A stretch of 64,000 bases of DNA. It comes from an uncultured Thiodictyon sp. Lineage in GTDB: Bacteria > Pseudomonadota > Gammaproteobacteria > Chromatiales > Chromatiaceae. The first letter of the stretch is position 1; every line of letters starts with the position of its first letter. Position numbers and translations under genes: made by a program. This document shows, piece after piece, positions 8,299 to 54,322 of this stretch. The stretch spans positions 133-64,132 of the forward strand of contig NZ_CAJAXH010000014.1 of assembly GCF_903946935.1 (NCBI RefSeq), written 5' to 3'. The notes below the pieces were generated by a model. That model had not been told where the DNA came from. It saw only the letters and a list, made by a program, of their open reading frames with translations, and did no database searches.

Positions 8299-8469
8299 CC
8301 TAAGCCTGAGCCAGGGAATTACTCACGCCAAGGCGCCAAGCTCGCCAAGAAAGACAATAGGCTATGCGAAGTTACCAGATCATTCGCCGGGTGAATCGCC
8401 AAGCGTCGATAACACACTGAAATTACTTGGCGAGCTTGGCGCCTTGGCGTGACAACTGCTTTTTCTAGG
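8299..8469. mobile_element. CGCCAAG-family MITE-like element, copy 1
   Basis: Core 8323-8452: TCACGCCAAGGCGCCAAGCTCGCCAAG ... CTTGGCGAGCTTGGCGCCTTGGCGTGA, a perfect 27 bp inverted pair; outer ends CCTAA...CTAGG. Confidence 0.8.
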
Positions 8470-8489
8470 ATGATCGACGTCAGGGCGCG

Positions 8490-9296: not shown

Positions 9297-9338
9297 AATC
9301 AGTCTCTTGTTGGTGGTCGGCGGCCCCGCGGTCTTGAG

Positions 9339-9502
9339 CCTGACAAGGGCAGTTGTCACGCCAAGACGCCAAGCCGCCAAGATTTTTCAGTGGATTACCG
9401 GTGTTAGCCCATTCCCCCGGCGGATGGTCTGGTGCCTTCGCCTGCCCTATTGCATTTCTTGGCGAGCTTGGCGCCTTGGCGTGAGCAATTGGCTGATCTA
9501 GG
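9339..9502. mobile_element. CGCCAAG-family MITE-like element, copy 2 (inverted relative to copy 1)
   Basis: Core 9356-9484 has the same inverted ends; the internal segment aligns with copy 1 on the minus strand (AAGAAA.CAATAGG...CCAGA...CGCCGGG.GAAT...CACTGAAA). Confidence 0.8.
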
Positions 9503-9503
9503 T

Positions 9504-10538
9504 TCAATGCAGTTGCATCGCCATCGCCATCGCCATCGCCATCGCGATGGCAGCCCGTAAGCTCCCCAGGTCGGCCCGATCGGTGCCGGCCAGGTCGAGC
9601 GCGGTGCCGTGATCCACTGAGGTCCGGATGATCGGCAGCCCGAGGGTGATGTTGACGGCCTGGCCGAACCCCAGGTGTTTGAGTACCGGCAGACCTTGAT
9701 CGTGATACATGGCGAGCACTGCATCCGCAGCGGCCAGACGCTCGTGTACAAAGACGGTATCCGCCGGCAATGGGCCCCGCAGGTCCCAGCCGCGTCCGCG
9801 CAGCCGCTCCAATACCGGTTCGATGATCTCGATCTCCTCGCGCCCCAGGTGTCCGCCTTCCCCGGCGTGGGGGTTGAGTCCGCAGACCAGGATGCGCGGG
9901 GCCGCGATACCGAAGCGCCGCACCAGGTCCTCATGCAGGATCGCGATCACCTGCTCAAGCAGCGGCGCAGTAATCGTCGCGGCGACCTCCTTCAATGGCA
10001 GGTGGGTGGTGACCAGGGCCACCCGCAGGCCCGGCGTAGCGAGCAGCATCACCGGGTGTGCCGTGCAGCGCTCGGCCAGATATTCGGTGTGGCCGGTGAA
10101 CGGCAGACCGGCGTCGTTGACGATGCCCTTATGCACCGGCCCCGTGACCAGTGCGTCGAAGACCCCGGCGCGGGTGCCGTCGCAGGCAATCCGCAGCGTC
10201 TCCAGTACATAGGCCGCATTGGCACGGTCGAGTCGGCCGGGCTGCACCGGTGCGCCCAAAGTCACCGGGAGCACCATCAGAGACCCCGGCGGGTTTGGGC
10301 TTGGCGGACGGTCGGGGGCATACTCTAGGCACCGCAGGGGCAACCCGAGGGCGCGCGCGCGTTCGGTGAGTAAGCCCGGATCGGCTACCGCGACCAACTG
10401 GGCTGCGAGCGGCTCTTGGACCAGTCGCACCAGCAGGTCGGGGCCGATCCCGGCCGGCTCTCCCGGGGTGACCGCGAGCCGCGGCGTGGCCTGGCCGGGT
10501 CCGGCCGTTGGCCACTCAGCGCTTGGTGTCGGCGTCAT
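9504..10538 (-). CDS. pdxA: 4-hydroxythreonine-4-phosphate dehydrogenase
   Basis: [53 protein letters not shown]. Confidence 0.97.
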
Positions 10539-23076: not shown

Positions 23077-24993
23077 ATGCTGCAGCAAATTCACGATCGC
23101 GCTAAGGGGTGGTTCGCCTGGCTGATTATCATCATGATCAGTATACCGTTCGCGCTCTGGGGCATTCAGTCCTATATCGGCGGGGGGAGTGAGCCGGTGG
23201 CGGGCCTGGTCAATGGACATGAGATCAGTGAGCGTGAACTCGATCACCGGGTACAGACCGAGCGTATCCAATTGCGCGAGCAAATGGGGGCGGCCTATGA
23301 TCCGGCGCAGTTCGATGACAAGCGCCTGCGCCAGGAGGCGTTGGATGCGATGATCCGAGAGGCCTTGGTGGTCGATGCCGCCAATCGTATGGGTCTGCGG
23401 GTCGCCGACCCGGTGTTACGTGGCCAGATCCTGGCCGAGCCAGCCTTCCAGCAGGATGGGCATTTCGACAACGCGGCATACGAGCAGGCCCTTAAGTATC
23501 AAGGGCTCTCGCCCTCGCAGTTCGAGGCGCAACTGCGCCAGCGCCTGGTCGGCAGCCAACTGGTGCGGGCGGTCGCCGGCAGCGAATTGGTGACCAAGAC
23601 CGAGCGCGAACAATACCAGCGGCTGACCGGCCAACGGCGCGAATTGAGTTGGTTGCGGGTGCCGATCGCCGGGTTCTTGGGCGACGCGCCTATCGATGAT
23701 CAGGCGATCGCCGCCTATTACGAGGCCAATCCCAAGCGCTTTCAGGTCCCGGAACAGGTCAAGCTCGACTATCTGGTCCTCGACGTGGCCGGTCTTGCGG
23801 CCAAGACGAGCGTCTCCGACGAGGATATTCGCCGCGCCTATGAGTCCGATCAGGCCCGTTTTGGTCGGCCCGAGCGGCGCTCAGTCAGGCACATACTGAT
23901 CACCGTGCCCCCGGAGGCCGATGCGGCGGCCAACCAGGCGGCGCTGGCCGAGATTGAAGGGGTCCGCAAGCGCATCGAAGGCGGCGAGGCCTTCGACGCG
24001 GTCGCCAAGGCCGTCTCGAAGGACCCCGGGAGCGCGAGCCAGGGTGGGTCTCTGGGTGAGATCGAAAAGGGCATCTGGGACCCCGCGTTCGAGCAGTCCG
24101 CCTTCAGCTTGCCGGTGGGCCAAATCAGCGAGCCGGTGCGCAGCAAGTTCGGTTATCACCTGATCCAGGTGCAGTCCATCACCCCCGCGGCGGTCAAACC
24201 ACTGGGTGAGGTGCGCGAGCAATTGCGCGGCGAATTGGCCAAGCAAAAGGCCGAGTCACTCTTCTACGATCAGGGTGAGCGCCTGGCCAATCTGGTCTAT
24301 GAGTCCTCCGACAGCCTGGTGCCGGCGGCTCAGGAGCTTGGCATGGAGATCCAGCACAGCGACTGGATCAGTCGCGCGGGCGGCGAGGGCGTGTTGCGAC
24401 AACCCAAGGTGACTGCGGCCGCCTTCAGCGACGAGGTGCTGAACGAGCACCGCAACAGCGACCTGATCGAGCCCGAGAAGGAGGTCTTGCAGTCCGTGGT
24501 GCTGCGCGTGGTTGACCACCGCGAGGCGTCCACCCGGCCACTGGATGAGGTGCGCCCCGAGATCGTCACCGCGTTGCGCAAGGAGCAGGCGCAGCGGGCC
24601 GCGGCGGCGGCGGCGAGCGCCGACGCGGACAAGCTGCGCGGCGGCGCCGACTGGGCGGCGGTCGCCGGTGACGCGAAGGTGGAGGAGGCCGGGCTGGTGG
24701 GCCGCAATGACCCCAAGGTCCCCGCCGCCGTGTTGAGCGTGGCCTTCACCCTGCCGGTCCCGGCGACCGGCTCGGCCAGCGTCGGTACTGCCACCCTGGA
24801 GGACGGTGACGCCGCCGTCGTGCGTGTCACCAAGATTGAGGACGGTGAGGTGAAGCCTGCCGCCAAGCCCGGCACCCCGGACCCGGCGGTGTACATGCTC
24901 GGTCAAATGCTCGGCCGCCACTCCTATGACGCGGTGCTCAACGACATGGAGTCGCGGGCCAAGGTCGAGCGCAAGGCGGCCCCGGCGCGCTGA
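23077..24993 (+). CDS. ppiD: Periplasmic folding chaperone/PPIase D
   Basis: N-terminal membrane anchor (MLQQIHDRAKGWFAWLII...PFALWGI), SurA-N domain, parvulin domain (DPGSASQGGSLG); lon-hupB-ppiD synteny. Confidence 0.92.
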   Translation: MLQQIHDRAKGWFAWLIIIMISIPFALWGIQSYIGGGSEPVAGLVNGHEISERELDHRVQTERIQLREQMGAAYDPAQFDDKRLRQEALDAMIREALVVDAANRMGLRVADPVLRGQILAEPAFQQDGHFDNAAYEQALKYQGLSPSQFEAQLRQRLVGSQLVRAVAGSELVTKTEREQYQRLTGQRRELSWLRVPIAGFLGDAPIDDQAIAAYYEANPKRFQVPEQVKLDYLVLDVAGLAAKTSVSDEDIRRAYESDQARFGRPERRSVRHILITVPPEADAAANQAALAEIEGVRKRIEGGEAFDAVAKAVSKDPGSASQGGSLGEIEKGIWDPAFEQSAFSLPVGQISEPVRSKFGYHLIQVQSITPAAVKPLGEVREQLRGELAKQKAESLFYDQGERLANLVYESSDSLVPAAQELGMEIQHSDWISRAGGEGVLRQPKVTAAAFSDEVLNEHRNSDLIEPEKEVLQSVVLRVVDHREASTRPLDEVRPEIVTALRKEQAQRAAAAAASADADKLRGGADWAAVAGDAKVEEAGLVGRNDPKVPAAVLSVAFTLPVPATGSASVGTATLEDGDAAVVRVTKIEDGEVKPAAKPGTPDPAVYMLGQMLGRHSYDAVLNDMESRAKVERKAAPAR

Positions 24994-24995
24994 TC

Positions 24996-25030
24996 CTTGG
25001 CGAGCTTGGCGCCTTGGCGTGACAACTGCT
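24996..25030. repeat. Solitary right end of the CGCCAAG-family element
   Basis: CTTGGCGAGCTTGGCGCCTTGGCGTGACAACTGCT is identical to the copy-1 right end; no left end nearby. Confidence 0.8.
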
Positions 25031-25058
25031 CTTCATACACTCAAGCACGGACCCCGAC

Positions 25059-29614: not shown

Positions 29615-30982
29615 TTAACGGCATTGGTAGCCAGGCGGCGTGCGCCGGTGCAATCGCAGCGGCATGCCCCCTTTGGGCCCAAGCGTGATCTGAGGCTCCA
29701 GTTCAAGTTGTTGACTCGGATGCCGGAGCTCGAATCGGTAGCGCTGCCCGATGGTCGCCAGGATCAGCGGGCCTTCGACCAGCGCGAACTGGTTCCCGAT
29801 ACAGATGTGCGGGCCACCCCCGAAGGGAAAATATTTGAACTTGTGCCAGCCACTCTCGGCATCCTTGGCAAAGCGCTCCGGATCGAAGCGCTCCGGGTCC
29901 TCCCAGAGGTCGGGGTGACGATGCATGGCATAGGCGCTCATCATGAGGACGCTGTTGACCGGAATCGGGTGCCCGCCGAGTTCGAGCGGCTCGGCCACGG
30001 CGCGCACGATGAAATAGGCGGGCGGGTAGAGACGTAATGCCTCCTTGAAGACCATCCGCGTATAGGGCAGGCGCTCCAGGTCATCGAATCCGGGCGCGCG
30101 CCCGCCCAAGACGGTATCGATCTCCTCATGGAAACGCGCCGCGATCTCCGGCTGGCGCGCCAGCTGATACCAAACATAGGTGAGCGTCAGGGCCGTGGTG
30201 TCGTAGCCGGCGAGATAGAGTGTGAGCACCTCGGCGCGGATCTCCTCGTCGGACATGCGCGCGCCGGTTTCGGGGTCGGTTCGATGCACCATCATGGTCA
30301 GGAGGTCGTCGCCCTCCGCGCCGCTCGCGCGACGCTGGCGGATTGCGCCCAAGACGATGCGGTTGAGGTCGTCGCAGAGCGCCCGCTGGCGGCGATGTTC
30401 CGGGGTCGGGAGCCAATCCGGGACCTGGATGAGGCGGTCGAACTGGCGCGTGGCGATAGCCTGCAAGGCCGGAACCGTGGCGGCAATCGTCTCCGCGTGG
30501 GCGGCGCTGTCGACCCTGAAGAGCGCCGCGGTGACGATGGACAGCGTGAGCCCGTCCATCTCCTGTTCCACATCGGCCTCCTGTCCGTCTTGCCAGCACT
30601 CGGTCAGGGCGCGCGCCTGGCGCACCATGATGTCGGTATAGCCGCGCACCTGCTGGAGGTGCAGGGCGGGCGCGATCATGCGGCGATGGCGCTTCCACTC
30701 CTCGCCCTCGCTGGTCAGCAGACCCACCCCCAGGGTCTTCTCAAGGATTTTGCGCACGAGTGGATCCCGCGCCAGATGCCGCTGCTGGGTTACCAGTAGG
30801 TCGCGGATCAGGTCCGGATGCGACACCAGATAGACGCGCCGGTGGCCGAGCCGGAACTTGACGATGGGCGCGAGCTGCGCGCTCTCAGCGAGGAAGGCAA
30901 GGCGATTATCGCGAAAGGCGCCCAGAACGCCGGTGAGCCAATGGCCCTTGCGCTCAAACAGTGCATAGGTCGAGGTGCTCAT
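29615..30982 (-). CDS. Cytochrome P450
   Basis: I-helix AGYDTT, ExxR (EALRLYPP), PERF, heme-binding FGGGPHICIG. Confidence 0.95.
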   Translation of the reverse strand: MSTSTYALFERKGHWLTGVLGAFRDNRLAFLAESAQLAPIVKFRLGHRRVYLVSHPDLIRDLLVTQQRHLARDPLVRKILEKTLGVGLLTSEGEEWKRHRRMIAPALHLQQVRGYTDIMVRQARALTECWQDGQEADVEQEMDGLTLSIVTAALFRVDSAAHAETIAATVPALQAIATRQFDRLIQVPDWLPTPEHRRQRALCDDLNRIVLGAIRQRRASGAEGDDLLTMMVHRTDPETGARMSDEEIRAEVLTLYLAGYDTTALTLTYVWYQLARQPEIAARFHEEIDTVLGGRAPGFDDLERLPYTRMVFKEALRLYPPAYFIVRAVAEPLELGGHPIPVNSVLMMSAYAMHRHPDLWEDPERFDPERFAKDAESGWHKFKYFPFGGGPHICIGNQFALVEGPLILATIGQRYRFELRHPSQQLELEPQITLGPKGGMPLRLHRRTPPGYQCR

Positions 30983-31259
30983 GGCAGCGTTTACTCCAGT
31001 GTCCAGGCCGTCTCGTCTTCAGCGCCTCGAATGGCAGTGGCTGAGGGTATTGGCGAGAACCGCCTTTTCAAGCGGTCGGTTGCTGTAGCGGTCCACAAAC
31101 GTCAAAACCTCCAGCGCCCCGCCGCGCTGGACCTCACGACTGAACGGCTGGAGTCGGCACCGCCGGAGGCTGGGGGAGAGGGTCCGCGGAACCGCCATCC
31201 GGCTAACGGCCATGGCGCCCGCACCACCCCGCAAGATGAAAGTTGCGGGCGCCGGCCGG

Positions 31260-31333
31260 CCCCCCACCCCGCCCTCCCCCACGAGGGGGGAGAGCGCATT
31301 GGAGCGCGCTCCCGGCGCGACTTCCACGGTAAA
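31260..31333. repeat. Dispersed intergenic repeat (CCCCACCCCG...GGGGGAGAG...GGAGCGCGCTCCCGGCGCGACTT.CACGGTAA)
   Basis: Near-identical copy at ~50896-50968; a partial inverted copy (TTACCGTGAAAGTCGCGC) at ~57960-57978. Confidence 0.7.
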
Positions 31334-31347
31334 AGACCAAGGTGGGC

Positions 31348-34300
31348 TCAGGTCTCGGCTGCCGCATTCAGGCCCCGCGTGGCACGCCGGGCCAGCCGGT
31401 CGAAGGCAAGATAGATCACCGGGGTGGTGAAGAGCGTCAGCACCTGGCTCAACAGCAGGCCCCCGACCATCGCCAGCCCCAGGGGCCGGCGCAGTTCGGC
31501 CCCCATCCCGGTGGCAAACATCAGGGGTAGCGCGCTCAGCAGGGCGGCAAAGGTGGTCATCAGGATCGGTCGCAGACGCAGCAGGCAGGCCTGGTAGATC
31601 GCCTCGCGCGGCGTCTTGCCCTCGCGCCGTTCGGCGTCCAGCGCGAAGTCGATCATCATGATCGCATTCTTCTTGACGATGCCGATCAGCAGCACGATAC
31701 CGATGATGGCCACCACCCCCAGGTCCTGGCCGGCGAGCATGAGCGCCAACAAGGCGCCGACCCCGGCCGAGGGCAGGGTCGAGAGGATGGTGATCGGGTG
31801 GATGTAGCTCTCATAGAGCACGCCCAGCACGATATACATGGTCGCGACCGCCGCCAGCAGCAGGAACACCTGATTGCCCAGCGAGGCGCGAAAGGCCAGG
31901 GCCGCGCCCTGAAAGCCGGTCTGCACACTGGCCGGCATCCCAAGCTCCTGCTGGGCCGCCTCGATCGCCGCGACCGCATTGCCGAGCGAGGCACCGGGCG
32001 CCAGGTTGAATGAGATGGTGGCCGCCGGGAACTGGCTCAGGTGGTTGACCACCAAGGGCCCGGCCCGCTCGCTGAAACGGGCGACGACCGCCAGCGGTAC
32101 CTGGACCCCGCCGCTGGTCGGCACATAAATCTGCTTGAGCGCCTCCGGCCCGATCTGGAACCGCGGCTCGACCCCCAGGACCACCCGATACTGATTGGAC
32201 TGGGTGAAGATGGTGGATACCAGCCGCTGACCGAAGGCGTCATAAAGCGCATTGTCGATGGCTGCCACCGTGACGCCCAGCCGCCCGGCCGCCTCGCGGT
32301 CGATGTCGATCGAGGCCCGCAGCCCCTCGCTTTGCAGGTCGCTCGTCACCTCGGTGAGGTCGGGTAGCCGACTCAGCCGCTCCACCAGCCGGCCAACCCA
32401 CAGCCGCAGTTCGGCCGCATCCGCGTCCTGGACCGAGAGCTGATACTGGGTGCGGCTCACGCGGCTCTCGATGGTCAGGTCCTGCACCGGCTGCATATAC
32501 AGCGTCATGCCGGGGACCTCGGCCAGCCTGGGCTGGAGCCGGCGGATGACCGCGGATGCGCTCGGGCGCTGTGCGCGGGGCTTCAGATCGATGAGCAGCC
32601 GGCCGCTGTTGAGCGTGGTGTTGGTGCCGTCCACGCCGATGAAGGAGGATACGCCCGCGACCGCCGGGTCTTGGAGTACCGCCCGCGCCAGCGCCTGCTG
32701 GCGCTCCGCCATCGCCTGGAACGAGATCGACTGCGACGCCTCCGAGATGCCCTGGATCAGGCCGGTGTCCTGGACTGGAAAGAATCCCTTCGGGATGACG
32801 ATATAGAGCACCACCGTCAGCACCAGGGTCGCGACTGCCACCACCAGGGTCGCGCCCTGATGCTCCAGCACCCACCCGAGCATCCGGGCGTAGCCGCGCA
32901 GTATGGCAGCGAAGAACCGGCCGCCGGACGGATGGTCCTGGGAGGAGGAGTTTTCACGCCAAGGCGCCAAGACGCCAAGGGCATTTGCTGTGTCATCAAC
33001 GGCGGGTGATGTATCTGGCGGCTGCTTGGAGGAATCCAGGGATTGCGTTTGCTTTCTTGGCGCCTTGGCGTCTTGGCGTGAGCAATTACCGGCCCCGGGA
33101 GCGGCCGTCGGCCGCTGGCGTAACCACTTGGCGCACAGCATCGGGGTCAGGGTGAGCGAGACGACGGCCGAGATCAGGATCGCGACCGCCAGCGTAATCG
33201 CAAACTCGCGGAACAGCCGCCCCACCACCTCGCCCATGAAGAGCAGCGGGATCAGCACCGCGATCAGCGACAAGGTGAGCGAGATGATGGTGAAGCCGAT
33301 CTGCTCGGCGCCCTTGAGCGCGGCCGTGAGCGGCGGGTCGCCCCGCTCGATATAGCGCGAGATGTTTTCGATCATTACGATGGCGTCGTCCACCACAAAA
33401 CCGGTGGCGATGGTCAGCGCCATCAGGGTCAGATTGTTGATGCTGAACCCGGCCAGATAGATGACGCCGAAGGTGCCCACCAGCGACAGCGGCACCGCGA
33501 TGCTGGGGATGAGGGTCGCCGGGATGCTGCGCAGGAACAGAAAGATCACCAGCACCACCAGGGCCACCGCGAGCATCAGCTCGAACTGCACATCGCGCAC
33601 CGAGGCGCGGATGGTGAGCGTGCGGTCGGTCAGTGCCCGCACCGTCACCGTGGCCGGCAGGGTCGCTTGCAGCTCCGGGAGCAGGTCCTTGATGCGGTCG
33701 ACCACCTCGATCACGTTGGCACCGGGCTGGCGGCGGATATTGACGATCACCGCGGCCGACTCATCCGCCCAGGCCGCCAATCGCTGGTTCTCCGCGCCCT
33801 CTTCCACCGTGGCCAGGGCCGAGAGACGGATCGGCGCACCGTTCTTATAGGCGACGATGAGCGGGCGATAGTCGGCGGCCGAGCCGATCTGGTCATTGGC
33901 GTCGATGGTGGAGGCACGGGTGGGTCCGTCGAAGCCGCCCTTGGGCTGATTCACATTGGCATTGCCCAGTGCCGTGCGCAGGTCCTCCAGCCCCAGCCCA
34001 TAGGATGCGAGCACCCCCGGGTTCACCCGCACCCGCACCGCCGGGCGCTGACCGCCGCTCAGGCTGACCTGGCCGACCCCGGGAAGCTGGGAGATCTTCT
34101 GCGCCAGCCGGGTCTCGGCCAGGTCCTCGACCTGATACAGGGGCATCGTGTCCGAGGTCAGTGCCAGGGTCAGGATCGGGGTGTCCGCCGGATTGACCTT
34201 GCTGTAGATCGGCGGGCTCGGCAGGTCGGTGGGCAGCAGGGTGCCGGCCGCATTGATCCCCGCCTGCACCTCCTGCTCGGCCACGTCGAGGCTGAGATCG

Positions 34301-34590
34301 AGGACGAACTGGAGGGTGATCACCGAGGCCCCGCCGGAGCTGGTGGACGACATCTGATTGAGGCCCGGCATCTGCCCGAACTGACGCTCCAGGGGGGCGG
34401 TGACGGACGAGGTCATCACGTCCGGGCTCGCGCCTGGATAGAGCGTGACCACCTGAATGGTCGGATAATCGACCTCGGGCAGGGCCGAGAGCGGCAGCAG
34501 GTGATAGGCCAGCAGACCGGTGAGAAAGATGGCGACCATCAGCAGCGAGGTCGCCACCGGCCGCTCGATGAATGGGCGGGAGGGGTTCAT
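31348..34590 (-). CDS. mdtB: RND efflux transporter permease MdtB/MuxB, with in-frame repeat-element insertion
   Basis: [68 protein letters not shown]. Confidence 0.93.
32937..33100. mobile_element. CGCCAAG-family element, copy 3, translated in frame inside mdtB
   Basis: Core 32954-33081 with both triple-CGCCAAG ends; reads [12 protein letters not shown]...[12 protein letters not shown] in the MdtB frame. Confidence 0.85.
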
Positions 34591-34754
34591 CCTAAGTCCG
34601 GGAATTGCTCACGCCAAGGCGCCAAGCTCGCCAAGAAAACAGCAAGATAGGCCACGCATCCAGATCGCCTGGCGGGTGAATGGCCCAGCATTGAGAACAC
34701 ACTGAAAAACCTTGGCGAGCTTGGCGCCTTGGCGTGATAACTCTTTTTTCCAGG
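34591..34754. mobile_element. CGCCAAG-family element, copy 4, between mdtA and mdtB
   Basis: Core 34609-34737 with perfect 27 bp inverted ends; outer CCTAAG abuts the mdtB start codon. Confidence 0.85.
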
Positions 34755-34781
34755 TTCATCGGTCGCGTCCGCGCACCGGGC

Positions 34782-36056
34782 TCAAGGCGCGGATCGGCGG
34801 TGACGGCGCTCCGGGGCCGCGGCCTGTCCCGGGGGCGCGTCGGCCGCCGGGCCGGAGGCGGGACCTTTGGCCTGGCCCGCGGCGGGGCCGTCGCGGCTGC
34901 CCAGTTCCACCTTGGCCCCCTCGCGCAGCTTATCGGTGCCGTCTACCACCACCAGCTCGCCGGGCTTGAGCCCGTCCGCCACCGCGGCCAACTCGCCCTC
35001 GGTCGGGCCGAGCTTGACCGGCCGGACGCTGACCCTTTGGTCCGCCCCGACCACATAGACAAAGGTGCCCTGCACCCCGCGCTGGACCGCCGCGGTCGGG
35101 ACCAAGGTGGCGTCGTGCAGTGAGTCGATCAGCAGCCGGACATTGACAAACTGATTGGGAAACAGCGCCCCGTCCTCGTTGGCAAACTCCGCCTTGAGCC
35201 GGATGGTGCCGGTGGTGGGGTCGATCTGGTTGTCCAGGGTGACCAGTTCGCCGCTGGCGAGCTTGGTCGTCTGGTTGCGGTCGTAGACATCCACTGGGGG
35301 CCGCTCGCCCGCGCGGACCTGGCGCAGGATGGCCGAGAGGTTGTCCTCGGGCAGGGTGAAGACCGCCAGGATGGGCTGCATCTGGTTGATGACCACCAGC
35401 CCGGCCGGGTCGGTGGCATGCACGACATTGCCCGCGTCGACCTGGCGCAGGCCCAGCCGCCCGCTGAATGGCGCGGTGATCCGGCAATAGGTGAGTTGGA
35501 GCTTGGCGCTGTCGATCTGCGACTGGTCCGACTTGATCGCCCCTTCGTACTGACCGACCAGAGACTTTTGGGTATCCCATTGCTGCTTGGAGCCCGAGTC
35601 CTGCTGGTAGAGTGTGCGGTAGCGCTCCAGGTCCACCCGCGCATTCTCCAGCAGTGCCTGATCGCGCGCCAGCGCGCCCTGCGCCAGGAGCAGTTGCATT
35701 TGCGAGGGTCGGGGGTCGATCTCGGCCAGCAGGTCGCCCGCCTGGACGTATTGACCCTCCTCAAAGGCGATCCGCATCAGTTGGCCGTCCACCCGGGTGC
35801 GGATCGTCACCGTATTGCGCGGCGTGACCGTGCCGGTGCCGCTCAAGTACACCTGCAAGTCACCGCTGCGCACCGGCTGGGCGACCACCGGCACCGGCCG
35901 CTCCTTGCCACCGCCGCCCGGCCCGCCCTGGCCGCTCGCCACCTCGGCGCCGCCGGGCCAATACAGCCAGGCGAGCACCGCCGCGACGCCGGCCAGGCTG
36001 AGTGCCAACAGTGGCAGATACCGGCGCCGCGGGGCGGCCTTGGGGTCCGAACTCAT
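34782..36056 (-). CDS. mdtA: RND efflux periplasmic adaptor MdtA/MuxA
   Basis: N-terminal membrane anchor, VTIRTRVDGQL, ITAPFSGRLGLRQVDAGN, DNQIDPTTGTIRLKAEF, LFPNQFVNV. Confidence 0.92.
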   Translation of the reverse strand: MSSDPKAAPRRRYLPLLALSLAGVAAVLAWLYWPGGAEVASGQGGPGGGGKERPVPVVAQPVRSGDLQVYLSGTGTVTPRNTVTIRTRVDGQLMRIAFEEGQYVQAGDLLAEIDPRPSQMQLLLAQGALARDQALLENARVDLERYRTLYQQDSGSKQQWDTQKSLVGQYEGAIKSDQSQIDSAKLQLTYCRITAPFSGRLGLRQVDAGNVVHATDPAGLVVINQMQPILAVFTLPEDNLSAILRQVRAGERPPVDVYDRNQTTKLASGELVTLDNQIDPTTGTIRLKAEFANEDGALFPNQFVNVRLLIDSLHDATLVPTAAVQRGVQGTFVYVVGADQRVSVRPVKLGPTEGELAAVADGLKPGELVVVDGTDKLREGAKVELGSRDGPAAGQAKGPASGPAADAPPGQAAAPERRHRRSAP

Positions 36057-52924: not shown

Positions 52925-52948
52925 TTCGGTTCTCAACCTCAGCAGGAT

Positions 52949-53114
52949 ACTAGAAGAAGCGTTTGTTTCACGCCAAGGCGCCAAGCTCGCCAAGTTTTTC
53001 GGTGCGTTATCGGCGGCGGGTCGTTGACTCGGTGGGCGATCGGGTTTCTTTGCCTAGCCTATTGTATTTCTTGGCGAGCTTGGCGCCTTGGCGTGAGTCA
53101 TTTCTGGGTTTAGG
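52949..53114. mobile_element. CGCCAAG-family element, copy 5, between mutY and yggX
   Basis: Core 52968-53096 with perfect 27 bp inverted ends. Confidence 0.85.
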
Positions 53115-54183
53115 GTGATGGGTCCGGGTCTGGCGGGGCCAGATCGGCGAGGATGGAGCGCACCGGCGCCGGCAGACCCAGGTCGGCCACGGCCCCGGGA
53201 CTGAACCACAGTTCCCGATCCGCCTCGGCGATCCGTTGGGTGGCGACGCGCGGGACCCAGACCTGCGCGATCCGCATGGCGAGCGCGAAGTGGCTGAATG
53301 CGTGGCGGCGCGCCGGGTGCATTTCAAGCCGCAGGGGGGCGGCGCCCGTGTACTCCAGGCACCAATCGGCTGGGTCGCGCGCGGGCGCGATCTCCGGCAG
53401 GCTCCACAGCCCACCCCAGATACCGCTGGGTGGACGGCGCTCCAGCAGGACCGCGCCGGTCGGGTCGCGGGCGAGGATCATCAGGGTCTCACGCTCCGGC
53501 AGGCGTTTGGCCGGCCGCGGCTGCGGGAACTGCGCCTGGCGTCCCTGGCGAGCGGCAACACAGGACGACGCCACCGGGCAGCGGTCGCAGGCCGGTCGGG
53601 TACGGGTGCAGAGGGTGGCGCCTAAGTCCATCATCGCCTGGTTGTAGGCGTCCACCCGGTCGTGGGGCGTGAGCCGCTCCGCGAGCCGCCACAACTCGGC
53701 CTGCACCGCCGTCTGTCCGGGCCAGCCGCTGACTGCGAAGCAGCGGGCCAGTACCCGCTTGACGTTGCCGTCCAGGATGGGGTGACGCTGGCCCAGCGCG
53801 AGTGAGAGCACGGCCCCGGCGGTGGAGCGACCGATCCCGGGCAGGGCCTCGACGCTCGCCAGTGCCGTCGGGAAGTCCCCGCCGTGGCGCGCCCCAATCA
53901 GCACCGCCGCCTGGTGCAGGTGGCGGGCACGGGCGTAATAGCCGAGCCCCGACCAGAGTGCCAGGACCGCATCGGCCGGTGCTGCCGCGAGGTCAGCGAG
54001 GGTCGGGAAGCGCGCCATGAAGCGCTCGAAATAGGGGACGACGACGGCCACCTGGGTCTGCTGGAGCATGATCTCGGAGACCCAGACCCGATAGGGCGTG
54101 GGGTCGCGCTGCCAGGGCAGGTCTTTGCGCCCGTGGCGGTCGAACCAGTCGAGCAGTGCTTGCGAGAAGGCGGCGGTAGGCAA
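53110..54183 (-). CDS. mutY: A/G-specific adenine glycosylase
   Basis: [42 protein letters not shown], CxxxxxxCxxCxxxxxC Fe-S motif; start approximate (TTG). Confidence 0.96.
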
Positions 54184-54248
54184 GCTCGATCCGATTCCCG
54201 GCCTGGTAAAAACGCTGCATGGCCGGGGGAGGTGAGGCGAGGGGAAGT

Positions 54249-54322
54249 TGGAGCGGGTGATGGGAATCGAACCCACGCTATCAGCTTGGGAAGCTGAAGT
54301 TCTACCATTGAACTACACCCGC
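54249..54322 (-). tRNA. tRNA-Gly(CCC)
   Basis: Reverse complement GCGGGTGTAGTTCAATGGTAGAAC...CTTCCCAAG...GGTTCGATTCCCATCACCCGCTCCA, 74 nt. Confidence 0.97.

Follow-up and report, generated by a model that had tools for sequence, protein, structure and literature searches.

The question raised by this locus is how a repeat of mobile character can lie inside the gene of a large membrane transporter and leave its reading frame unbroken. In the 64,000-nt stretch of DNA from an uncultured Thiodictyon sp. (a purple sulfur bacterium) analysed here (contig NZ_CAJAXH010000014.1, positions 133 to 64,132; hereafter the window), the minus strand encodes an MdtB/MuxB-family permease of the resistance-nodulation-division (RND) type, and a full-length copy of a palindromic repeat built on the heptamer CGCCAAG is contained within it. 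The insert is probably a translated passenger derived from a transposable element of the miniature inverted-repeat type (MITE), tolerated in a permissive inter-domain linker of this mdtB/muxB-like gene, and is most likely neither codon-adapted nor evidently adaptive. The gene and the parts of the insert are the following.

31348-34590, minus strand: intact MdtB/MuxB-family RND permease gene of 1080 amino acids, the carrier of the insert (open reading frame [ORF] and translation)
32938-33097, plus strand: heptamer-arm MITE copy within mdtB, diverged, full-length, ~160 bp (nhmmer and consensus alignment)
32957-32979, plus strand: left arm, CGCCAAG-G-CGCCAAG-A-CGCCAAG (pattern and inverted-repeat search)
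33056-33078, plus strand: right arm, CTTGGCG-C-CTTGGCG-T-CTTGGCG, complement of the left arm
32935-33096, minus strand: inserted peptide GAGNCSRQ...ENSSSQD, codons 499-552 of the pump (alignment to consensus)

According to the ORF list and translation, the frame is unbroken over all 1080 residues and the element is read through without a stop. Perfect CGCCAAG heptamers start at 32957, 32965, and 32973, and perfect CTTGGCG heptamers start at 33056, 33064, and 33072, all with one-base spacers; the two arms (32954-32979 and 33056-33081) are 26 nt each and 92% complementary. A profile built from four intergenic copies of the window matches the mdtB copy at 32935-33095 over the full profile length (nhmmer, 76 bits, E=6e-22), and the outer segments, counted by eye, are identical to the family consensus at 14/18 and 14/20 positions. 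The double-heptamer pattern CGCCAAGRCGCCAAG has 14 matches in the window at no more than one mismatch, 13 of which are exact, versus 0.10 expected from shuffles. With the copy in the "A" orientation on the plus strand, what the gene reads is the element's reverse complement. The preliminary description of this DNA, which was made from the letters alone, had placed a full CGCCAAG element in frame within mdtB, and the six perfect heptamers, the full-length profile match, and the unbroken ORF bear this out.

The insert is located between the sixth and seventh transmembrane helices (TM6 and TM7). The pump matches Pfam ACR_tran in two stretches (E=0), and both halves align end to end with the solved E. 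coli MdtB (PDB accession number 9lyq, E=0), with residues 2-493 corresponding to 11-502 and residues 557-1068 to 515-1027; the gap between the two aligned stretches is 63 residues in this pump vs 12 in 9lyq. This split at 493/557 agrees with the earlier placement of the element just after TM6, in the linker between the RND halves. In an alignment of 48 homologues, the TM6-TM7 loop (L490 to F560) of this pump is 69 residues long. The loop measures 18 residues in 44 of the 47 others and 24 in the two most similar, one of which is the orthologue from an uncultured Thiodictyon (MdtB/MuxB, P0002), 94% identical to the pump. The preliminary description had proposed that orthologues be aligned to size the insert; those without the element have the shorter loop (18-24 vs 69 residues), and an equally long loop was not found. 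Its figure of ~55 added residues has to be lowered, because the net gain from the insert is estimated from the alignment at about 45-51 residues. The GC content of the insert by codon position is 0.61/0.57/0.59, vs 0.67/0.45/0.89 in the rest of the gene, a flat profile which indicates that the insert is not shaped as coding sequence. The AlphaFold model, for which 48 close homologues were used, is poor (mean predicted local distance difference test [pLDDT] score of 57) and shows residues 490-557 as a coil at pLDDT of about 26-29 between the TM6 helix and the next helix.

The repeat family to which the insert belongs has a consensus of ~160 bp, CCTGGAAAGAGCAGTTCTCA-(CGCCAAG G CGCCAAG CT CGCCAAG)-G...75-nt interior...C-(CTTGGCG AG CTTGGCG C CTTGGCG)-TGAGCAATTGCCGGATTTAGG. 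The element ends are of the form TGGAAAGAGCAGTTCTCA-(CGCCAAG)x3, with an outer segment of about 20 nt in each terminal inverted repeat. Copies are 159-170 bp long and contain neither a transposase gene nor a long ORF; stop codons occur in 5/6 frames of the consensus, which indicates a family without coding capacity. In a comparison of 13 copies, the interiors vary while the helix formed by the arms (about 27 bp) is nearly invariant, and no covariation was found in the element (2/36 pairs, with invariant arms). The window contains five full copies and one half copy, i.e., the family occurs at six places. In addition to the copy in mdtB and one in the mdtA-mdtB spacer described below, these are the following.

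8301-8473, minus strand: intergenic copy between trpE-like and transglutaminase-like genes (nhmmer, 187 bits)
9335-9506, plus strand: intergenic copy abutting the stop codon of pdxA (nhmmer, 172 bits; pdxA at 9504-10538, minus strand)
52946-53118, plus strand: intergenic copy whose last bases are the TAA stop of a mutY-like gene (nhmmer, 166 bits; ORF at 53110-54276, minus strand)
24993-25043, minus strand: solo half-element consisting of one arm and the outer segment (pattern and nhmmer)

At two of these places (copy ends at 53106-53115 and 9504-9506) the intergenic space is almost wholly filled by the element. The last bases of the copy at 52946-53118 make up the TAA stop of the mutY-like gene (53110-53112), and the pdxA stop (9504-9506) is situated in the bases directly flanking the copy at 9335-9506. 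The arm of the half-element (24991-25043) starts two bases past the TGA stop of a ppiD-like gene, and the other half is missing.

Relative to single-copy depth, the read depth in four metagenome runs is about 30x for the left arm and about 110-170x for the right arm. The repeat is present in about a hundred copies in the genome, and dozens of element copies are found in contigs of Thiodictyon metagenome-assembled genomes (MAGs). Target duplications were assessed on 62 near-full-length copies from related loci (a set comprising genome contigs L001-L053 and metagenome contigs L054-L173). The flanks of 10 copies match at 7 or more of 8 positions, compared with 1.9% of mismatched left/right flank pairs, which served as the null (binomial P=2e-7). 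A loose consensus, nnT(C/G)A(A/T)CC, is common to the flanks and points to a preferred target. With its small size, inverted ends, ~8-bp duplications, high copy number, and lack of a gene, the family counts as a MITE by customary criteria; the earlier view of a multi-copy mobile repeat is upheld by the six places in 64 kb, the arm depth, and the target duplications.

Three other readings of the family were tried and rejected. Two supposed "subfamilies" with different interiors proved to be one family in two orientations. The T(C/G)A flank motif does not represent neighbouring stop codons, because TCA and TGA are equally frequent on the same side, which leaves a target or terminal preference. 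The sequence CTCACGYYAAG, which resembles the inner end of Tn3-family repeats, led to a reading as a Tn3-type inverted repeat; this was dropped, since a GGGG outer end is lacking and the duplications measure 8 bp instead of 5 bp.

These observations fit a course of events in which a non-autonomous MITE of ~160 bp would have inserted into the part of the mdtB/muxB-like gene that encodes the cytoplasmic TM6-TM7 linker. The element together with an 8-bp duplication would amount to 168 nt, i.e., 56 codons without a stop in the reading frame, so that the element would be translated and the pump would stay intact. The product would be a polar extension of the loop for which no structure is predicted. 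In the mRNA, the 26-bp helix of the arms is presumably just unwound by ribosomes, although it may lower expression.

The mdtB copy departs from its family in several respects. It scores 76 bits, vs 166-187 bits for the intergenic copies of the window, and its identity to the consensus is 71% over all positions and 59% within the interior, vs 75-80% for the intergenic copies; its heptamers are spaced by 8/8 nt, those of the others by 8/9. The mdtB frame enters the element where the consensus has two stops and leaves it in another frame. Since the entry and exit frames differ, the copy carries net indels, and its open frame is, as judged from the alignment, due to several small indels.

Some of these features, together with others, weigh against the course of events proposed above. 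The mdtB copy is without a recognisable target duplication, its flanks agreeing at 5/8 positions, which is the null level. Subtraction of 56 codons from the loop leaves 13 residues, fewer than the 18-24 of relatives, and one therefore has to suppose a flanking deletion or some other way of entry; either a small deletion went with the insertion, or the loop had changed earlier. The interior is far more diverged than those of the intergenic copies, yet 6/6 heptamers are perfect. Simple neutral decay fails to explain this; an origin from another subfamily, or selection on the arms, has to be invoked. No autonomous parent with the same ends was found, i.e., no kilobase-scale arm pair enclosing a transposase, in the 173 loci (about 1 Mb) and the window. 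Finally, translation of the insert is inferred, and the description of the loop as disordered is based mainly on composition and position, the AlphaFold model being poor.

On the other hand, the gene around the insert has the appearance of a working one. Residues D401, D402, K974, R1005, and T1012 of the pump are invariant alignment columns, and we take them to be equivalent to the proton relay of AcrB. The pump has 1 private change at otherwise invariant columns, whereas the median for the 48 homologues is 2 and the highest count 8; by this measure, constraint on the pump is not relaxed. The pump looks functional from its sequence, and we infer that it still works with the insert. A protein of an E. 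coli record (P0003) that is labelled MdtB/MuxB and matches 91% of the query at 54% identity has 1597 residues, an unusual length for this family.

The insert is also an established allele. The gene-element junction (32900 to about 33082) is spanned by contigs of four separate metagenome runs, and overlapping contigs of these runs carry on from 33058 with 0 differences. In a fifth run (X5), a single contig of 764 nt, equivalent to 32904-33667, includes the whole element and both junctions with 0 differences. At a likeness of at least 93%, the interior of the mdtB copy is single-copy, with a depth exactly as that of the flanks, in the four runs, and no element-free contig was seen in them. The insert is fixed in the sampled populations. 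Contigs of distant runs contain remote homologues only; one joint among them skips 168 nt and carries 27 other letters.

The same operon carries a second copy of the MITE, which has inserted at the start codon of mdtB. The features of this region are the following.

34592-34752 (34587-34758 at the widest), minus strand: further copy of the MITE, within the mdtA-mdtB spacer (nhmmer, 178 bits)
34753-34760, minus strand: upstream copy of the 8-bp target duplication GATGAACC, with the ancestral ATG of mdtB (perfect, 8/8)
34592-34759, minus strand: ORF of 55 codons from the ancestral ATG through the spacer copy, ending ...LGVSNSRT* (translation)
34782-36056, minus strand: membrane-fusion (MdtA-type) gene upstream of the pump (Pfam HlyD_3 and HlyD_D23)

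The downstream copy of GATGAACC (34584-34591) holds the working ATG at 34590. The upstream copy lies exactly 22 nt past the mdtA stop, which is the mdtA-mdtB spacing of the 94%-identical relative, whose contig has a spacer of 22 nt with no element in it. The perfect repeat and this shared spacing indicate that the insertion duplicated the start codon of mdtB. The 55-codon ORF stops at a TAG one base ahead of the working ATG, and translation could be coupled by this arrangement. The relative has neither of the two mdtAB insertions, and its matching contig shows BSH_RND and related families in the membrane-fusion gene. Past the pump gene, at 29615-31348, there is no mdtC-like second permease, and a cytochrome P450 gene is located there instead; the MdtB/MuxB-type pump is therefore probably not part of an MdtBC-style heteromer.

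The main rival to a tolerated passenger is that the insertion silenced or strongly attenuated the gene. In this case, the arm helix would be cut (e.g., by RNase III) or would block ribosomes, or the loop of ~50 residues would hinder folding or trimer assembly, and the ORF would look intact solely owing to the recency of the insertion. In the strand of the mRNA, the two arms pair in a strong fold (minimum free energy of -74.7 kcal/mol for 178 nt, z=-5.4), which favours this possibility, as do the insert's lack of codon-position structure in GC content and the second hit on the same operon, at the start codon of mdtB. No intrinsic terminator was found within the element in the gene sense, and a search of RNA runs for the region gave no match. 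However, the frame is open through 56 codons along a path where the consensus has stops, private changes are not above background, and five separate metagenome runs show the allele as fixed, none of them with an allele that lacks the insert. The spacer insertion, moreover, regenerated the ATG, and the upstream ORF that ends 1 nt before it is compatible with continued coupled translation. Silencing or weakening of the pump is thus an unlikely explanation, although it is the one that competes most directly with a tolerated, translated passenger.

Tolerance of a translated copy is not a general property of the family. Hairpin copies numbering 110, with 240 nt of flank on each side, were examined for an open frame across the element and both flanks. 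Eight spanning frames qualified, and coding-type GC was present on both flanks in only 2/110 copies, i.e., mdtB and an hsdS gene on a Thiodictyon MAG contig (L035:1060-2679, minus strand); apart from hsdS, the long spanning ORFs in GC-rich loci were rejected as further translated copies, being off-frame artefacts. The hsdS gene encodes a type I restriction specificity subunit with two Methylase_S domains and has a short element variant in frame in the central linker. Downstream of it, a truncated hsdS fragment (L035:794-1063, minus strand) carries an element whose site and frame are the same but whose interior is different; these two paralogous sites with the same arms indicate that the arms persist while the interior turns over. 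Both hsdS and mdtB carry the element at an inter-domain linker, which suggests that in-frame survivors mark permissive linkers. In-frame survival is rare (about 2%), occurs at inter-domain linkers, and is not built into the element. The preliminary description had further suggested that a length of ~165 bp and an open frame let the element colonise proteins, and this is not supported. The consensus has stops in all but one of its frames, and the mdtB copy needed indels; the copies in frame in genes are the two just described. When all six frames of the consensus were searched against a protein database, nothing but six nonsense ORFs came up, and typical copies with their 8-9-bp duplication are not generally multiples of three.

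Type I restriction-modification genes are found repeatedly near element copies, HsdM-like ones in 13 loci and HsdR-like ones in 8 (e.g., L089, L115, L108, and the window), and STAND/NACHT-type ATPases and TIR/CHAT-type proteins also recur near them, which suggests that the repeats accumulate in variable defence islands.

The arms themselves extend far beyond Thiodictyon. The exact arm 24-mer CGCCAAGGCGCCAAGCTCGCCAAG is present in genomes classified as Chromatiaceae, among them the isolate Lamprocystis purpurea DSM 4197, and as Thiohalobacterales, and also as Bradymonadales, Planctomycetota, Verrucomicrobiota, Acidobacteriota, Lentisphaerota, and Chitinophagaceae, at least seven phyla in all, with the caveat that every match outside the Gammaproteobacteria is from a MAG. 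About 0.004 chance matches are expected in the collection searched (about 1.2e12 positions, with both strands counted, over 4^24). Interiors and GC contents (0.51 to 0.70) are particular to each lineage, and mis-binned Thiodictyon contigs therefore do not explain the spread over phyla. Arms with exactly three units account for 313 of 337. A sister family with CACAAAG/CTTTGTG triplet arms stands beside or around CGCCAAG elements in Thiodictyon contigs (L007:2201-2265, L024:134-200, L033:2386-2450, and L038:3736-3800), and CGCAAAG/CTTTGCG arms occur in other phyla (L002, L017, and L028). In a Planctomycetota-type lineage (GC content of 0.53-0.55), arm pairs lie 90-115 nt upstream of paralogous genes for Rpn/YhgA-like (Transposase_31-type) nucleases, at the following positions.

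L094:444-3811; L011:2175-3293; L053:4566-5395; L165:1924-2500: Rpn/YhgA-linked arm loci

At L094, the arms bracket units of 1-2 kb. The outer segment beside the heptamers in this lineage resembles that of Thiodictyon at 15/21 positions. The Rpn/YhgA-like genes are no more than a lead to a possible partner protein.

A wider proposal can be built on this distribution, which we put forward as a speculation with little weight. The three-heptamer arms of the CGCCAAG, CGCAAAG, and CACAAAG types, seen in Chromatiaceae, Thiohalobacterales, Bradymonadales, Planctomycetota, Verrucomicrobiota, Acidobacteriota, Lentisphaerota, and Bacteroidota, would form one cross-phylum hairpin superfamily whose arms are kept by a trans-acting protein (a transposase or possibly the Rpn/YhgA-like nucleases), and the copies in mdtB and hsdS would not be inert passengers but would function, at inter-domain linkers, as sites of DNA rearrangement or RNA processing. 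If this were true, the arms would be conserved even in coding sequence while interiors turn over. Improbable, too, is that the insert has been co-opted, either with its peptide as a docking or regulatory segment of the linker or with the hairpin kept as a regulatory site at the RNA or DNA level in the operon. The 6/6 perfect heptamers around an interior only 59% like the consensus, the two paralogous hsdS sites (L035) that share arms and differ in interior, and the conservation of arms across phyla would all be in line with such a role; however, a MITE family mobilised via its ends would equally show conserved arms and variable interiors. The composition of the insert is of the non-coding type, the insert is absent from 46 homologues besides the closest orthologue, which also lacks it, and the element shows no covariation. 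An assembly or binning artefact, in which the repeat was joined wrongly into the gene, can be dismissed as extremely improbable: short-read assemblers do break at this repeat, and many contigs stop at the arms, but five separate runs cross the gene-element junctions with 0 differences, one contig holds the whole element, the interior has flank depth in four runs, and the frame is kept with mdtB on both flanks.

As a tolerated passenger, the mdtB copy would be a clean and well-bounded example, from beyond the obligate intracellular bacteria, of how a large and conserved membrane transporter can harbour a mobile palindromic repeat that is read through, and it would indicate that the TM6-TM7 linker of an RND pump is able to take about 50 extra residues. 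The host protein, the two insertions in one operon, and the cross-phylum arm motif make it worth recording, and the element family, with its three-heptamer arms, ~8-bp duplications, and a motif common to several phyla, could repay study of its mobiliser. The family seems to be undescribed: Rfam gave no match to the element at gathering or permissive thresholds, and in the literature we found no description of the element sequence or of Thiodictyon repeats. Viral contigs gave 0 matches, and plasmids gave only one partial arm (on a plasmid of Ca. Thiodictyon syntrophicum).

Several known repeats invite comparison. REPINs make no target duplication, Correia elements duplicate TA, the cyanobacterial STRR repeats are comparable heptamer direct repeats, and TAACTGA arrays reportedly consist of contiguous 7-nt tandems of variable length. 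Like the repetitive extragenic palindromes (REPs) and REPINs mobilised by RAYT (PMC3733652), the present elements are abundant extragenic palindromes that often lie at gene ends and in operon spacers. REPs are described as 20-40 bp long with a GTAG or CGTC tag (PMC3733652), and identity with REP/REPIN was rejected in view of the CGCCAAG triplet arms, the unit of about 160 bp, and the duplications. Direct and indirect repeats of the heptamer TAACTGA have been reported from Beggiatoaceae, a few Cyanobacteria, and Bacteroidetes (MacGregor 2015, cited in PMC4853749); they share with the present arms a specific heptamer in short arrays, both direct and inverted, an intergenic location, and an occurrence common to distant phyla, and for the spread of the arms over phyla they are the nearest parallel that has been described. 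The heptamers here, in contrast, have 8-9-nt spacing and almost always three units, and are paired as inverted arms of a bounded element with duplications.

The classical bacterial MITEs (Correia/NEMIS, ERIC, and Nezha) resemble the family in small size, terminal inverted repeats, target duplication, high copy number, a long hairpin if transcribed, and placement in operon spacers. The differences are a duplication of about 8 bp, not TA, and inverted repeats that each consist of three direct heptamers with 1-2-nt spacers. Occasional in-frame cases are described for ERIC, BOX, Anabaena MITEs, and Coxiella QMITEs (PMC10969869; PMC5896051). QMITE1 and QMITE2 of Coxiella burnetii likewise have tens of copies, mostly intergenic, with occasional in-frame copies within or at the ends of ORFs that supply residues or stops (PMC5896051), and the stops so supplied parallel that of the mutY-like gene at the copy at 52946-53118. 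They differ in host, sequence, and ends, and QMITE copies are documented as sources of small RNAs (PMC5896051).

A further parallel is with the Rickettsia palindromic elements (RPEs), for which in-frame palindromic insertions are established (Ogata et al. 2000, as reviewed in PMC10969869); together with the QMITEs, they confirm the earlier statement that comparable in-frame repeat insertions have been described. The mdtB insert shares with them a palindromic repeat of about 150-160 bp, a position in frame in a housekeeping-type gene at a site compatible with the fold, and an intact host ORF. RPE families, according to the review, encode a conserved open peptide, and nearly half of the copies lie inside ORFs (PMC10969869). 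The present family, compared by description and not by sequence, differs from them in a consensus closed in five of six frames, in the scarcity of copies in genes, and in its heptamer-array arms. The type of event, though rare, has been described in other bacteria, and the insert in this mdtB/muxB-like gene is a further case.

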